This document shows positions 1,937 to 62,027 of a DNA stretch of 64,000 nt, in pieces. The position numbers and the translations under genes are program-made. The notes under the pieces are model-generated. The model made no database searches. It was not told the DNA's origin and saw nothing but the letters and a program-made list of their open reading frames with translations. The DNA comes from Octopus vulgaris (lineage: Eukaryota), in NCBI GenBank assembly GCA_951406725.2, contig OX597814.1:190526001-190590000 (forward strand). The letters run 5' to 3'. Position 1 is the stretch's first letter. Every line of letters starts with the position of its first letter.

Positions 1937-3544
1937 TACTAGCACCCATTTAACTATATAGTTTCACAAGGAAGATATCTTTGGGCATTTTTTGCCAGCT
2001 TCTTTTATAGTAAGTTATGTGTTGATAATTTGGGATTACTATCTCTTCAAGGTTTCACAAAATTTATCAAATTTACATCAAAGGAGAAACAGTATGATTT
2101 AAGGCAAAGTGCTGCTGTGGTTGAGTCAAGAAACAATGGGATTTTGTGGTGAAAATATGTCAAAATGTAACCCATATTCTTCAGGAAAGCAACCATTCTA
2201 ATTAGTATCGCAGTTGCTGTGTTAGATATACCTACCACTTACTCCTGGTGTACCCATAACCAAGATACTACATTCTCACTGGCTTGATTTACCTAGCTAC
2301 AAGTAAGCACAATGATTGTATGATTAACAAGTATTTTGTTAGATTGCAGTGTTAGGTTCCTGAAACAAGAAAATAAACCCAGTAAAAGAGCCAGACTCAA
2401 GACCTAAGTTTGATTCTTTCATTGGATTCAGTCTTGAAATCTGATTCATGCTGATTGGTTAAGTGGTAGTGTAGTGGCATGAAAAAACACAAAGCATCCA
2501 CTACACTCCGTAAAATGAATTAGGAAAGGCACCCAGCTGTAGAAAAAAATGCCAATGATGGAATTGGAGCTCAACACAGCCCTGTAGATCACTAGTTCCC
2601 TGTTAAATCCTAACCATGCCAGCATGGAAAGCAGACTTTAAATGATGATGATGATGAGAGAGAGAAAGGACCCTGTGTAAGTATGTTATATATATAATGA
2701 GATTAAATTAATATACAAAATTAAGTAATATTGTAAGTTTTAATAAAAATACTTAGAAACCGATTAATTCTAGAAATAATTGTTAGTTACAAGATTTTTA
2801 TAGTTTAGTGTGATTTGAGTGGTTAGGTGAAGTGAATATCTTAAAATACATCTGGTCACCACTGTTTTATGACACTATTATTTAGCTTTGAAGAAACCTG
2901 TTTCTGTCTATCATACTTTAGCCTTTTAACACCAAGCATAAAGCCAGCTCCCTTCTCTACTATACCCCCACTAACTTGAGGGGGTTTTTTAGTCCTGCAA
3001 GTTATATGGCAACCTCATTTGTGATGGTGCCATGAAAAAAGTATTCAGTATACTTTAAAAAGTGGTTGCTGTTAGAAAGGGTATCCAGCCACAGAAGCCA
3101 TGCCAAAACAGACATTGGAGCACAATGCAGCCCACAGACCAACCAGATCATGTCAAACAATCTAACCCAAACCAGTACAGAAGATGGTCAGTAAATGATG
3201 GTAATGATTATGACAAATGGTCGGTTCAGAGAGATTGTGAAGTGTAAGTTATACTGTATGTAATTAATCTGATTTTGACATTTATATATTCAGAAATCTG
3301 AAACCTGAGAATAACTGCTGGAGTTTGATATTAAATGGGTTTTTCACAGTCAAAACTAAACAGAAACGTGTATACAGAAGTAATGGGAAATTTTAAATTC
3401 ATAACCTATGTAGCCGGGAGAAAAAAAAAATAATATATATATTTCGTCTTTGGATTTGGTTTGCAAGATTCTTTATGTGAGTTCGTGTGTTGAAGCATAT
3501 TCTGTTGTGTCTGGGGAGAGTCATTTTCTTTTTGTGCCTTATAA

Positions 3545-16927: not shown

Positions 16928-17049
16928 TAAATAGATGGTCACAATTAGAATGTTTTCGATCATAAATTTACTCAATCAGGCCAAACACAAAATAGCTTTA
17001 GGTTCAGTTTTCATTTAGAATTAGTAAAATGTAACTAGAGAATACTCAC

Positions 17050-17154
17050 CATCTGCACACTGACACGTATAACTTTGTGCTGTACAATTTTGAATACATG
17101 TACCATTTTGACATGGTTCAGAAATGCATGGTCCTTTACACTGGCAAAATACTC
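17050..17154 (-). CDS. crb: Crumbs exon: one EGF-like repeat (not in ORF track)
   Basis: ctgaag|GA GTA TTT TGC...GCA GAT G|gtgagt; 105 nt, phase 1 to 1; (G)VFCQCKGPCISEPCQNGTCIQNCTAQSYTCQCAD. Confidence 0.9.
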
Positions 17155-19012
17155 CTTCAGTCAAAAACAATAAAACAAAAAATAACATGAGAGGTTATAC
17201 AATTAAATAATTTCATCATTCCTATTACTAAATTATATTCAAAGTACTGATATAAAAACTGTACTTTTAACATATTCAAATCCCTTCTTTCCATTTCTGA
17301 CATGAAGCTCTTAAAAAAATCACTATTTCACCAAAAAACCAGCGTCGGAATTCACTTCTGCTGCATTTCTAGCAAAGGACTACGATTTTGGATTTTAAAA
17401 TAAGTTTAAAATTATTCCAGAATAGTCATGAATATATTATGAATAAAGAGTTTTCTAGAAAGTCATTTGTGCTAATATTTTCTGTATCAAATAATTTGCT
17501 ATAGCAAACAGTGTTATAGTGTTGGCACCTTGCTGGTGTGTATGACAAACAAATTCTTATCTTTTCTGAATAAGTAAACTGAGATAATTCTCTCCGAACC
17601 TTCCTTCTTAATTGCATTTGATGGAAACAACAGGATTTCTTTTGTTTGAATATGAAGATATTTGTGAAGTGAGACATCCAATGTTAACCATCTCAATGAA
17701 ACATTAAAAAATGGATTTATATCAATGGCTATCTTCCTAACATTATGAGACCCAATTTACAGGTAAACAGATTGATAATATACACAACCAACAACGTAAT
17801 TTTACAACTACATTTTTTGTATTTATAACTCTATAGGCTTAAAAACATATCTTCAGGTGAATTTTAGTATTGGCTCTTAAACTGGTTGTAGTTTTTATAC
17901 ACCTTGGTTCAGTCTTTTATCTTCAAGGGACAGATTTGGTTAATAGTTTAGAGAACTAGTAAAAAGATATAAATGGTAAAAGATATAAAGATCCCCTTTG
18001 GTCACAAATTATCATGAAAGTCTCTATCCAAGGAATAAGTCTGGACAAAGTTGCTTGTAGAAGACCAGCAGTCATCCATGCATGCCAATCTCCCCCTCTC
18101 AAATGCCATCAATATTGTCCAAGGAAAGGCAAAGCGCAAAGGCAGATACAACTAATTTCTACAGCTGAGTGAACTGGAGCAACGTGAAATAAAGTGTCTT
18201 ACTCAAGAACACAACACATGTATCCTGGTCCAGGAATCAAACTCACAACCTCATGATTGTAAAGCTGGATGCTTACACATGACTTCACAAGAACAAGCTA
18301 TAATTGTACGCAGAATGAAATGAAGTCAACCAAAAGCCATTCTAGTATATTTCTTTCTTTAATTAACAAATGAAGACAAGACCTTTAGTGGTGTCCTAGC
18401 AATGCAATTGAATACAGAATATTATTTGCTTTGCACAAACACATTAGTGAGTTTATATTTTGTTGATATCATAAAAATTTTATCTTTTTACAAGCAATAA
18501 AAGTGCCAAAGTGATCAGATATTTAACCAGCCAGGAAAACCTCACTGTAAGGCCGAAAGCTACCACTAGGGAAAAACCATACTATAATGAGTTCAAGCTG
18601 ATATTCAAAGGTCATGTATTATAATAATTGAGAGTTGAATGACAACAATTTAGTTGGCATTAAGAAGATTGTATCTCAGTGACGGGAAGGCATCCAACTG
18701 TAAAACGCTATCTCAGAAAAATCATGGAAGAGTGGATGTAAAGTGTTAAGAAGATCTACTTCTAACACATCATCACAGTTAAGGTAGCTACAGATCTGGC
18801 TGACTTGCTAGTAGTTTTATCTATAGTAATTTCTGAATAATTACTCAAGCGTTGCATTAATTAGTAGAAAGGCTGAACTACCTGGCATTATTTAGTATAA
18901 AAAAATTAAAATACTGTCCACCCTCTGAGCGAAATATTTTATAGGTTTGTCAGTTAGCACCAATTGTACAAAATTAGTTTCTTGAATTTATTTCCGACAT
19001 ACACACACACGT

Positions 19013-19255
19013 TTGTAGTGTGGAAGGTGTTTATAAGCCATTTAAGAAACACACAAAAACCGTTAGATTCACTTCAACATTTAAATTTAATTTGTCAAAA
19101 TATTTTCGTCGCTTTGAGACCGCGACCTGTTCACTGACAAAGCTTCGTGCTGCATCTGACGAAAATATTTTGACAAATTAAATTTAAATGTTGAAGTGAA
19201 TCAAACGGTTTTTGTGTGTTTCTTAAATGGCTTATAAACACCTTCCACGCTGCAA
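19013..19255. repeat. 98-bp-arm inverted repeat (Penelope-like inverted terminal structure)
   Basis: Arms 19013-19110 and 19158-19255, 3 mismatches, 47-nt spacer. Confidence 0.93.
19091..19141 (-). ncRNA. Variant minimal type-I hammerhead ribozyme (G3-C8)
   Basis: TTTGTCA-GTGAACA-G-GTCGC ggtctcaaa GCGAC-GAAA-ATAT-TT-TGACAAA: 7-bp stem I, 5-bp stem II, palindromic stem III. Confidence 0.65.
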
Positions 19256-19979
19256 TTGTTTTCGTTCCAGCACACGATCTCAGATCAGGTCACTTGCTAT
19301 GCAAGTACATCTCCGTAACACACATGTTTGTTGGAGGTAAATTAGGTAATTAGGTCCACCTGATACCTCACATCCATACATGATTGTAGATACCCACTTA
19401 AATACCAGTGAAACTATGATACAAATTTCGTTATATATTTAATATATTTAATGTCTAAACACACATAAACTTTATACACTTTCTTGTAATCATGTATTGA
19501 TCAACTGTAACGTTTGCACACATAAGCCACAACACATATACATATATTTATTGCATACTGTAACAGTAGCTCATAAAATCACAGTTACCACTTATTAAAA
19601 AAACATGAAGACAGGAAAATTCAGCCTACACATAGCAGTGTTCCACCAGAATAAACATCGAATGAAGTGATAAAGGTGATATATTGTTTTTAATGTTAAA
19701 CTGCGAAATCTTTAAATCTACAACTGTAGAGAGCAGAAGGACAGGATTGGTGAAGTAGAAAGGAACTCTTGGGAGGTGTTTACTAAGATAATACAAGAAA
19801 TAATCACAAATAGCAGGTGGACAGATGTTGGAAGCCATATTCAGAGGGTTATAGTGCAACGGAGGGTAAAAAGTGCTGATATACACAGCTTGACTTGGAG
19901 CATTTTCTGTGAGTCTGATAGTAAGTTGACAATATTTAAGGAGGTGCTACACTAGATGGGCAGCAAGATTGAAGTCTAC

Positions 19980-20216
19980 CTTCAAAATACTTGGGGCAGA
20001 GGCAGAACCAGGCATCATCTGTGACAATGCATTCGCTGCCATAGTGACAGTGAATGTTATGACAACTTGGAATGTCACAGTTTTTACCCTCGTAGCCCAG
20101 CTCAGGAATGCAATCACAAAAGTAACTGCCAACGATATTGTCACATGTCGAGTTATGTCGACATGGATTCTTTTCCGCATCATGACATTCATCTATGTCT
20201 TCTGAACAAAGATAAC
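19980..20216 (-). CDS. crb: Crumbs exon: two EGF-like repeats
   Basis: ccccag|GT TAT...TTT GAA G|gtagac; 237 nt, phase 1 to 1; YLCSEDIDECHDAEKNPCRHNSTC...CLCPKYFE. Confidence 0.93.
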
Positions 20217-21331
20217 CTGGGGAAAAAATAGAAATCAAACAAAACATTGCTACAGCAACACTTTCAGCTCAATCAAAAAAACGAAAACAGTTAACAGGCA
20301 GGTGCAGGAGGGGCTGTGTTTTGGATTTACTCCAACTATGTAGCATCTTGGGCAAGAATCTTTTACTACATTTCAGTACATATTTGGCTTGTTTTGGTTT
20401 GTAAAGCTGGATGCCTCTTCCATCACCAACCATCACACAGAGTATACTGGGTAGAATTAGAGAAGTTGGCATGCTCTACACAGGACAAGGCTAAAGGGTC
20501 CTCTCGACCTCAGGTTTTCTCTATTCATTTGCCAACCACTTTACTGTGTATTGGGCAAATTTTGTTGAGGCAGAAACACCATATACATACATATATATAC
20601 ACTTACACATGTGGTAGGGCTGAAAAGCTCCTAGCTTTGGATAAAAGAAAATACAGGAGGATCAGTTAATTGTGATTTTATTCCCTTTTTCAGATTCACA
20701 CACTTATTGCAGCAGTCCTTCAGTTTTTCTGAGCCCTGTAAAAAAAACTTGGAAGGTTGGGCCTCCAATCAGGCTTTTCACAATACTCTTAAGGCCAGGA
20801 ACTTTTCAGCAACCTCTCGTGTGTGTGTGTGTATGTGTGCACACACACACACACATGACCAGTGAAGAGTGGAGTTGTTGGAATCACATTTGTTCCATGG
20901 TTTCCATCTGTCTCAGCAACATACGCATGGCAAATCATATAAGTTGGTAAATATGGAAGAGAGCAATCATTATGTAATATTGGTTTCAAATTTTGGCACA
21001 AGGCCAGCAAGTTCAGGGGAAGAGGATAAGTCAATAATACCAACCCTAGTGTTCAGCTGGTACTTATTTTATTGACACTGGAAAGATGGAAAGCAAAGTT
21101 GAACTTGGTGGAATTTGAACTCACAATGGAAAGACAGACAAAATCCCACTAAGTTTTTTTGTCTGGCATGCTAATGATTCTGTCAGCTTGCCACCTTGAA
21201 ATAAAACAATTGTAAAACATCTCAAGCAAGAATTTTTTGTCTCCAGCAAGAATTTTTTCTCTCAAATATATTTGAACTGCATCTAATTTTGCTTACTTTC
21301 AGTCACTGCTCTGCACATCTACTCATGAATA

Positions 21332-27479: not shown

Positions 27480-27890
27480 TGGCTCAAAAAGCAAAAGCAA
27501 GGCCATAAAGGGGGCCATGGAATTATGTACAGGGAGGGTGTTCATGCAAAGAGTTCAGGCCATTTCTGGTCAAGAGAGACTTTGAACCGAGCGGTCGTCG
27601 GCATCTTCACTATCTCGTCCGGCAGCTTATTCCCCAGATCCACAACCCGGAAGGAGAAAGCCCCTCTCCTTCAATTGAGATGAAATCGTCGCAGATAGAG
27701 CTTTTCGGAGTGACTCTGCAGCCGACGCTCTGGAGCAGGAGTGAAGAACAGCTCTTTCGAGAGGTTACACTTTCTGCTTATGTTGTGAGCGAGAATGAGA
27801 TCACCACGGCGTTGTCGTTTTTCTAGAGAATAAAGGTCGAGCATCTTCAGCCTTTCTTCATACGACAAATGCTTGAGACCAAGAACCAAA
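27480..27890 (-). mobile_element. CR1 LINE 3' fragment
   Basis: GLKHLSYEERLKMLDLYSLEKRQRRGDLI is typical of the CR1 ORF2 C-terminus. Confidence 0.88.
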
Positions 27891-38035: not shown

Positions 38036-38507
38036 GCCATATGTCCTTCCTGTCACTAGTACTCAACTGTTTCCAGGTAAGATACTGTTTTCTCAAAGAG
38101 TTTATTTAGATTATGTTTCCACTTGTTCAACACTTTATAACAAAATGAAATACAAAGATTAAGTAAGTACTTGTCAAAGTTTCAAAAGTAATATATATAT
38201 AATAATAAAAATAATAATAAAGAAATTATTGTATACAGTGCTCAAGTGCACCACAACTTGTCAGAAAGTGCATATAAAGTATATGCAGTAATGTACAGAT
38301 GTCTGGAAAGCGAACAGTGTATATACACACACGTTTATATATTTGTTTTGCAAGATTCTTGATGTGAAATCGTGTATTGAAACAGATATTCTTGTATTTA
38401 GGAATGGTCATGTTGCCAGTTTAGCCAATAAAAACACACGCACTATATATTTGGTGTTAATTTGCTTCAGGTTTATTTATTTTTTACATTAATCTTAATC
38501 TTATTTC

Positions 38508-38552
38508 GGCCAGAGTTCTTTCGTCACACTTCTGTGACCTCATCAGTGGTCC
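38508..38552 (-). ncRNA. Minimal type-I hammerhead-like motif
   Basis: GGACCA-CTGATGA-G-GTCACA gaag TGTGAC-GAAA-GAAC-TC-TGGCC. Confidence 0.68.
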
Positions 38553-38604
38553 TTTGCTTTCTTCTTCCTTATTTGTGTGTCTCTCCTTACTAACGATCAG
38601 CCAT

Positions 38605-60006: not shown

Positions 60007-61609
60007 ATCATCATCATCATCGTTTAACGTCCGCTTTCCATGCTAGCATGGGTTGGACGGTTCAACTGGGGTCTGGCAAGCTCGAAGGCTGCACCAGGCC
60101 AGTCAGATCTGGCAGTGTTTCTACAGCTGGATGCCCTTCCTAACGCCAACCACTCCGAGAGTGTAGTGGGTGATTTTATGTGCCACCGACACAGGTGCCA
60201 GGCGAGGCTAGCAGACGGCCACGCTCGGATGGTGTTTTTATGTGCCACCGACACAGGTGCCAGACGAGGCTGGCGAACGGCCACGCTCGGATGGTGTTTG
60301 TCACGTGCCCTCAGCACGGAGGCCAGTCGATGCGGTACTGGCTATGGTCACGCTCGGATGGTTTTCTTATGTGCCACCGGCACTGGTACCACAAGGATAC
60401 AAATTCCATTGATGTTCATCTATTTTGATTTGGTTTGATTTGATTTGATTGATTTTCACTTGCCTCAACAGGTCTTCACAAGTGTCACAAGAAGGAAGGT
60501 ATGCACAGGTGGACTGACTACGTCCCAGGTAGGGGCCACGGGTTATGGCTTCACTAGTCTTGCCGGGTCTTCTCACGCACAGCATACTTCCACAGGTCTC
60601 GGTCTCTAGTCATTTCCATGGTGAGACCTAACGTTCAAAGGTCGTGCTTCACCACTTCGTCCCAGGTTTTCCTGGGTCTACCTCTTCCACGGGTTCCCTC
60701 AACTGCTAGGGATTGGCACTTTCTCACACACCTATCTTCATCCATTCTCGCCACATGACCATACCAGCGCAATCGTCTCTCTTGCACACCACAACTGATG
60801 CTTCTTAGGTACAACATTTCTCTCAAGATACTAACGCTCTGTCGAGTAAGTACACTGACATTACACATCCATCGGAGCATACTGGCTTCATTCCTCACGA
60901 GCTTACGCATGTCCTCAGCAGTCACGGCCCATGTTTCACTGCCATGTAGCATGGCTGTTCGTACACATGCATCATACAGTCTGCCTTTTACTCTGAGCGA
61001 GAGGCCTTTAGACACCAGCAGAGGTAAGAGCTTCCTAAACTTTGCCCAGGCTATTCTTATTCTAGCAGTTACACTTTCAGCGCACCCACCCCCACTACTG
61101 ACTTGGTCACCTAGATAACGGAAGCTATCAACTACTTCTAGTTTTTCCCCCTGGAAAGTGACGGAAGTTGTTTTCTGCAGATTTTCGGAGGTCAATGCTC
61201 CCGAGCATCTGCCACATACAAAAACTATCTTCCCAGTTAGCCTACCTTTGACATTGCTGCACCTCTTATGTGTCCATAGCTTACACTGGGTACATCTTAT
61301 AGAGTTTCTACCTACACCTTTTCTACAGATCGAGCAGGGCCATCTTCCTGAGGATATTTGTGGATTGTCTACCTTTCTACTTATTAATACTTTGGTTTTA
61401 GCTAGGTTGACTCTAAGGCCCCTCGATTCTAAACCCTCCTTCCACACCTGGAACTTCTCCTCCAGTTCTGATAGTGACTCAGCAATTAGAGCGAGGTCGT
61501 CAGCATAGAGGAGCTCCCAGGGGCAAAACGTCTTGAATTCCTCCACAATTGCCTGGAGGACTATGATAAATAGGAGGGGGCTGAGTACTGAACCCTGGTG
61601 GACCCCAAC
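60007..61609 (-). mobile_element. 5'-truncated RTE-clade LINE: RT C-half, 3' UTR and (GAT)n tail
   Basis: VGVHQGSVLSPLLF, LLYADDL, FRYLGD, MLHGSETW, RGRGRPRKTW in and just before the 303-aa ORF 60635-61546; continuous into the common 3'-end repeat. Confidence 0.95.
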
Positions 61610-61637
61610 AATAATAATAATAATAATAATAATAATC

Positions 61638-62027
61638 TTTTATTTGTTTCAGTCATTTGACTGTGGCCAAGCTGGAGCACCGCCTTTAGTCGAGCAAATC
61701 GACCTCAGGACTTATTCTTTGGAAGCCTAGTACTTATTCTATCGGTCTCTTTTGCTGAACCACTAAGTTCCAGACACGTAAACACACCAGCATCGGTTGT
61801 CAAGCGATGTTGGGGGGGAACAAACACAGACACACAAACATATACAGACACATACATATATATGACGGGCTTCTTTTAGCTTCTGTCTACCAAATCCACT
61901 CACAAGGCTTTGGTTGGCCCGAGGCTATAGTAGAAGACACTTGCCCAAGGTGTCATGCAGTGGGACTGAACCCAGAACCATGTGGTTGGTAAGCAAGCTA
62001 CTTACCATACAGCCATTCCTGTGCCTA
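61638..62027 (-). mobile_element. Family A SINE, full length
   Basis: Reverse complement of consensus. Confidence 0.9.

Follow-up and report, generated by a model that had tools for sequence, protein, structure and literature searches.

Here we describe a truncated, head-to-head insertion of a young Penelope-like element (PLE) of octopus whose pseudo-LTR (pLTR) carries a minimal hammerhead motif with an exchanged 3-8 core pair, G3-C8, that is found throughout one lineage of the element. In the reading we prefer, with a probability of about 0.8, the motif likely cleaves weakly, as a dimer or with the element protein, in tandem element transcripts, and the copy under study, which lies in an intron of a host gene, is probably an inert passenger. 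The window analysed is a stretch of 64,000 nucleotides from Octopus vulgaris, and all positions below refer to it unless a copy is named.

If active, G3-C8 would complete the set of natural covariants at the 3-8 pair of the hammerhead, joining C-G and U-A. The thousands of copies, together with natural C3-G8 motifs in sister families, allow a direct comparison of rates and bear on the role of PLE hammerheads. The case also concerns detection: a family with more than 5,500 cores in one genome escapes Rfam and the standard descriptors.

The hammerhead motif and the element that carries it

The motif occupies 19091..19141 on the minus strand and has the layout of a type I minimal hammerhead. Stem I joins 19141-19135 to 19097-19091 by seven Watson-Crick pairs, stem II joins 19126-19122 to 19112-19108 by five, and the core reads GUGAACA (19128..19134), with G3 at 19134 and C8 at 19129. 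GAAA follows at 19107-19104, U16.1 is 19099 and U17 is 19098, after which the predicted cut falls (19098/19097). Base-by-base placement upholds what a preliminary description of this DNA had read there: a GUGAACA core with both 3-8 partners exchanged, perfect stems of 7 and 5 bp, the same cut, and a 3' part of the motif lying in a repeat arm (19110-19091, inside the left arm). Two features had gone unremarked. Helix III is reduced to the palindrome AAUAUU (19104-19099), and an unpaired G at 19127 is placed between A9 and G10.1.

Stems I and II enclose U4, G5, A6, A9, G12, A13, A14, A15.1-U16.1 and H17, and positions 3 and 8 form a Watson-Crick pair, present as G3-C8. The literal CUGANGA consensus is replaced by GUGAACA, and the motif is filed as a variant and not as a canonical minimal hammerhead (min-HHR). 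G10.1-C11.1, the unpaired 9/10.1 base and the palindromic helix III are all present; the bulged base is G, versus H in the published consensus, and the C3-G8 relatives described below have G as well. No contact between loop I and loop II was identified in the motif, and an Rfam scan of the window reported no hammerhead at E<=1. Among 200 dinucleotide-shuffled windows searched on both strands, none held a motif whose two stems reached 7 and 5 pairs or more, and one match attained 5/5. Judged by its sequence, the motif is homologous to hammerheads and shows the traits of the minimal type found in PLEs. A CUGACGA on the plus strand at 19156-19162, considered as a second hammerhead, is without a stem II and was dismissed as a by-product of the junction.

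The insertion as a whole extends over 19013-19318 and consists of two head-to-head, 5'-truncated pLTR pieces of a PLE that we call family A. The minus-strand piece (19013..19157) starts at an AGATG hot spot (19157), contains the whole hammerhead and has a short 3' end without a tail. The inverted, plus-strand piece (19158..19318) is more strongly 5'-truncated, starts inside stem II (GAC-GAAA), has a long 3' end and shares 94% identity with the pLTR of copy L052. Between them they form the 98-bp inverted repeat that had been reported earlier and that we recover, with arms of 98 nt each at 19013-19110 and 19158-19255 and three mismatches (19016, 19019 and 19065). Beyond the repeat the insertion continues into a 63-nt tail (19256..19318, plus strand), previously unremarked, which is present on one arm only and lies between two preferred 3' ends, the putative start sites of reverse transcription. 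The plus-strand piece includes the first 30 codons of the PLE ORF (MAYKHLPRC..., 19227..19318), which continue as a full ORF in copies L322 and L323. The target is a CA repeat, in which any target-site duplication would be masked.

This insertion sits in an intron of a minus-strand host gene, with EGF-like exons on both sides on that strand: an open frame with the upstream exon spans 19939..20268 (exon borders approximate), one with the nearest downstream exon found spans 17024..17194, and a further EGF-like exon lies at 27671. The last exon of the gene ends GTYSPS...ERLI, which we take to be the C-terminal tail of crumbs, and the host gene accordingly to be crumbs; exons and motif share the minus strand, in agreement with the earlier statement that the hammerhead lies in the sense of crumbs. 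The insertion was found in three runs labelled as three organisms (X15, X16 and X17), and no empty site was seen among the joints listed for the four runs examined. The flanks in the three runs differ from the window at a few places only, so that sharing of the insertion implies little age. Elsewhere in the window, a short, old fragment (75-77%) of a pLTR tail like that of sister family B lies at 3433-3527 (minus strand), and an RT-like open frame of 334 aa at 60635-61639 (minus strand), one among many repeats, presumably belongs to another LINE-type retroelement.

A 148-nt query returned 1,843 first-look candidates, the 40 scored ones being 96-100% identical. The route to the full element led from a GIY-YIG-like frame upstream of one copy to copies with long open frames of 669-1,025 aa, which contain RT motifs, a CxxC linker and a GIY-YIG domain. 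The last was matched by Pfam (E=1.8e-5, above the Pfam cut-off); the RT was recognised by eye from its motifs only (SLYPS, QTKGGAIG, YVDD), with no Pfam RT match. The ORF starts with MAYKHLPRC about 50 nt after the motif, the pLTR overlaps its start, and all ten fetched long-ORF copies (L051-L060) have the G3-C8 motif in the pLTR. In one copy (L341), arranged as pLTR-ORF-pLTR, the G3-C8 motif occurs twice in direct orientation at a distance of 4,261 nt, which allows a dimer to arise in element RNA. A single ORF with RT and C-terminal GIY-YIG, along with tandem and inverted pLTR layouts, places family A among the EN+ PLEs. By these sequence traits the insertion is a piece of a young, high-copy Penelope-like retrotransposon; its repetitive nature, too, had gone unremarked in the preliminary description. 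Two other classes were considered and rejected. A non-LTR retrozyme would consist of short units repeated head to tail, with a hammerhead in every unit; family A copies are solo or inverted, and the sole tandem seen is the 4.3-kb ORF-bearing unit. A MITE or another DNA transposon is at odds with the unequal arms and the presence of a PLE ORF start. A subfamily concentrated on contig C16 (L003, L024-L029, L031) is marked by GGTCTGAAA as its loop II and by long 3' regions rich in microsatellites.

Conservation and origin of the G3-C8 pair

Cores with exact flanks number 6,024 in the genome, and 5,534 of them have G3-C8, so the conservation of GTGAACA across genomic copies that the preliminary description had proposed to examine is indeed found. 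The first 100 cores listed comprise 95 with G3-C8, 5 with single changes and none with C3-G8. This minority consists of single changes of the kind that decay after insertion would produce; the core count therefore shows youth, not selection. Conservation among young copies alone is no proof of selection, and it is the comparison between lineages that is informative. No reversion to C3-G8 was found in family A: 12 C3-G8 matches have the start of the family A stem II, and all 10 that were inspected come from other families. Positions 3 and 8 show no change at a level of at least 5% in any of four runs labelled as four organisms.

The comparison was made with lineage D, an older group whose copies are 73-85% identical to their own query. 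It used 21 of 25 loci, the 4 others, in which the motif region is absent, having been dropped. G3 stands in 19 of the 21 copies and C8 in 14, the remainder at position 8 being T (6) or G (1). Between the D majority and family A all 13 core positions are identical, as are 33 of 37 structured positions, compared with 116 of 154 in the flanks (38 changes); two of the four structured changes make up one compensatory pair in stem I. One-sided Fisher tests of A versus D give p=0.03 for the core, 0.048 for structured positions and 0.005 when the compensatory pair is counted as kept, values that rest on one lineage pair and on stem I limits set by eye and that we regard as modest evidence for selection. 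What has changed is N7, loop II, the length of helix III (palindrome AAUAUU in A, AAUU in D) and the compensatory stem I pair, and the outermost pair is lost in D.

In sister families B, C and E the scaffold is shared, including the bulged G and a GUC...GAC stem II, and holds C3-G8. The window itself offers a comparison, a family B pLTR at 38320..38604 (minus strand) with a canonical C3-G8 hammerhead whose core starts at 38546. A tree of 10 proteins, in which the relatives are metagenome sequences and which excludes three loci lacking a long frame, makes A and B sisters (100/99) among relatives with C3-G8 or U3-A8, and G3-C8 is thus most simply derived in the A/D lineage. The swap belongs to the transposon family and not to the crumbs locus, and its distribution indicates that it is probably both derived and selected in the element. 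The earlier argument that a double change speaks for selection and not for decay finds its backing here: with the A/D comparison and the C3-G8 scaffolds of the sisters, the swap looks selected. Outside octopus, no G3-C8 motif was seen near the ORFs in 76 metagenome loci of related proteins, many of them on short contigs; the motifs found there are C3-G8 or U3-A8. Loci with distant RT matches (L110, L113-L115, L139, L143, L145, L146, L150-L152, L158) contain a minimal hammerhead of the U3-A8 type whose stems covary and which at several of the loci precedes the RT match.

Copy ends, cleavage and the inverted arm

In a sample of 60 copies, which by its construction requires an intact motif, 53 have their 5' end between -7 and +14 of the AGATG site, 16 nt before stem I. 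Sixteen arms start exactly at AGATG after non-element sequence, and 10 of these are preceded by G, some ambiguously. The clustering and the preceding G suggest a capped transcript start, the G possibly being a reverse-transcribed cap. The same site (19157 in the window; L221-L280) also reads CTAAC...TTTCTCAG, resembling a branch point and a 3' splice site. A second sample comprised 58 arms chosen by a downstream motif, with no exact core match required. It shows no pile-up of 5' ends at the cut: 2 arms, one of them with an internal deletion, begin no more than 2 nt from it, versus 14 at AGATG. Of the 35 inverted arms in the 60-copy sample, just 1 begins at the cut. The templates of reverse transcription appear uncut, as in the anole element, and the ends offer cleavage no in vivo support. 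Copy L313 has an internal deletion that begins immediately behind the bulged G and stops precisely at the predicted cut. As to expression, no RNA holder of the motif was found among those listed, and run contigs cannot show ends or strand. At L052:7480-7780 a run guessed to be RNA (X14) has 8 A-to-G places, one of them in stem I, versus 2-3 in the other three runs, an excess that may reflect A-to-I editing of pLTR hairpins.

Such ends are also compatible with a dead hammerhead that has lost cleavage, its fold being kept by hitch-hiking or as an internal promoter at the DNA level. The inferred start is followed 16-66 nt downstream by the motif, a position at which the Penelope element of D. virilis has internal promoter elements (PMC2377424). 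In young sister family B, A9C is present in 78 of the first 100 pattern matches listed; that the family spread with this change suggests that a perfect core is unnecessary for copying, and could reflect either tuned-down ribozymes or dispensable cleavage. In PMC11167929, moreover, ribozyme mutants were without effect on insertion in vitro. Loss of cleavage does not, however, readily account for the fixation of a double, mutually compensating change, and the compensatory stem I pair that distinguishes A from D, like the change in helix III length with the palindrome retained, is a signature at the RNA level. The spacing from the start site also varies by 1-2 nt between subfamilies, which counts against a promoter role. 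We consider a dead motif unlikely, though it deserves to be taken seriously, and favour a motif that still cleaves weakly.

The inverted arm is a common feature of the family. It is present in 35 of the 60 sampled copies (taken in list order from the exact-flank core matches, with paired matches merged and three previously fetched loci skipped), and every one of the 35 has one long and one short 3' end and a tail on one arm only, of about 60 nt versus the published 30-40. The inverted arm starts inside the motif in 13 copies, covers it in 14 and starts 3' of it in 8; seven of the 13 have a junction in common and probably go back to one event that was duplicated. Copies L229, L231, L258, L259, L261, L262 and L265 have an identical inverted junction and a similar flank, as though one insertion had been amplified inside another repeat. 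Insertions in which pLTRs stand inverted head to head, with or without a tail, are described for Penelope of Adineta vaga (PMC3846280) and by Craig et al. 2021 (PMC8557442), and in the anole PLE the tail has been linked to a pair of sites in the ORF at which reverse transcription starts (PMC11167929). By its layout the long hairpin is the usual scar of PLE insertion.

The preliminary description had seen more in it, namely that hairpin and ribozyme exclude each other and that the layout could silence cleavage of the host intron. On such a model the host would keep the copy for this function. Predicted folding bears out the exclusion: the hairpin is favoured over a forced ribozyme fold by 23.6 kcal/mol, the pair probability of stem I is about 0, and in the crumbs sense the opposite arm is transcribed before the motif arm. 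The sense orientation and the occurrence of the insertion in three runs fit a retained switch as well. The silencing itself finds no support. Inverted arms recur across the family with junctions anywhere along the pLTR, the three arm mismatches are uncompensated, the swap is family-wide, and the near-identical flanks take the force from the sharing between runs. A single minimal hammerhead of S. mansoni did not cleave (PMC4209133); a lone motif of this kind is not expected to cleave, and there is thus little for the hairpin to silence. Given the variable junctions and uncompensated mismatches, we found neither locus-specific conservation of both folds nor a selected junction. A host-selected switch in the crumbs intron is unsupported, and we judge it highly improbable that the host keeps the copy for this purpose. 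For crumbs itself the insertion probably has little effect beyond a 98-bp double-stranded stretch in the intron. A chance look-alike in a palindromic repeat such as a MITE, which the empty Rfam result and two core positions off consensus might seem to favour, is refuted by the motif's presence in 10/10 long-ORF copies, its fixed position before the PLE ORF, the homologous C3-G8 scaffolds of the sister families, the 0/200 shuffles and arms that are unequal and not terminal repeats, and can be given practically no weight.

Proposed mechanism and comparison with known systems

Weak cleavage of element RNA can be fitted to these observations as follows. Transcription would begin at AGATG, some 16 nt before stem I, and uncut RNA would be reverse-transcribed from two sites in the ORF start, yielding one tailed and one tail-less arm. 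Purifying selection would maintain the motif in source elements, slow cleavage would probably take place on tandem element RNA, as a dimer or with protein, and the copy in the crumbs intron would be neutral.

A bolder extension, which we offer tentatively and think rather less likely than its negation, is that G3-C8 marks a natural hammerhead class selected as a slowed ribozyme. Families A (G3-C8) and B (A9C), both large and young, would have gone off-consensus independently, such that their RNA stays uncut for reverse transcription and still cleaves with the element protein. CUGANGA descriptors would miss such motifs, and PLE clades regarded as "hammerhead-less" may hide them. The youngest full-length copies of family B (L061-L068) have ORFs of 1,311-1,312 aa that are 99% alike, some in tandem, with A9C and U17; metagenome locus L085 combines U3-A8 with A9C.

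Natural variation at the 3-8 pair has been published as U3-A8 (PMC3088659; PMC4209133). In the literature searched, G3-C8 appeared in engineered rescues only, within an incomplete survey in which one or more key papers on variants could hold a natural case; the available parts of PMC6765202, PMC6155905 and PMC10085705 contain none.

The min-HHRs of metazoan PLEs, which include a U3-A8 variant in Schistosoma Cercyon elements (Cervera and de la Pena 2014, PMC4209133), share with family A the pLTR location, type I topology, the extra 9/10.1 base, G10.1-C11.1 and a short palindromic helix III. They too occur mostly as single motifs in truncated copies, with some close pairs on opposite strands. 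Family A differs in having G3-C8 in place of C-G or U-A, a bulged G in place of H and a longer stem I (7 bp).

At the level of the insertion, the cases in PMC3846280 and PMC8557442 resemble the crumbs-intron copy in their inverted, 5'-truncated copy at the 5' end, one-arm tail, simple-repeat targets and lack of a clear target duplication; the crumbs-intron copy differs in being pLTR-only and in having its junction inside the ribozyme motif. At the level of the protein, PLEs of the Nematis clade (Craig et al. 2021, PMC8557442 Fig. S2) share with family A a C-terminal GIY-YIG, the CCHH residues and a short CX3CX2C-X7-C linker, which in family A lies between RT and EN and was compared by eye with that figure. 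The family A ORF is longer (more than 1,000 aa), and the likeness to Nematis that we draw is one of linker length only.

The closest functional parallel is offered by Poseidon PAc of Anolis carolinensis (Frangieh et al. 2024, PMC11167929), in which engineered C3G/G8C partly rescued a cleavage that needed protein. In contrast to Penelope/Poseidon, the family A protein has a CxxC linker; compared with PAc, its tail is about 60 nt and not 30-40, and its ORF starts downstream of the motif, whereas that of PAc starts within stem II. Both place a hammerhead at the pLTR-ORF junction, both have two 3' ends in the ORF start that define the tail, and in both the templates are apparently uncut. The base swap is identical in the two systems, engineered in PAc and natural in family A.
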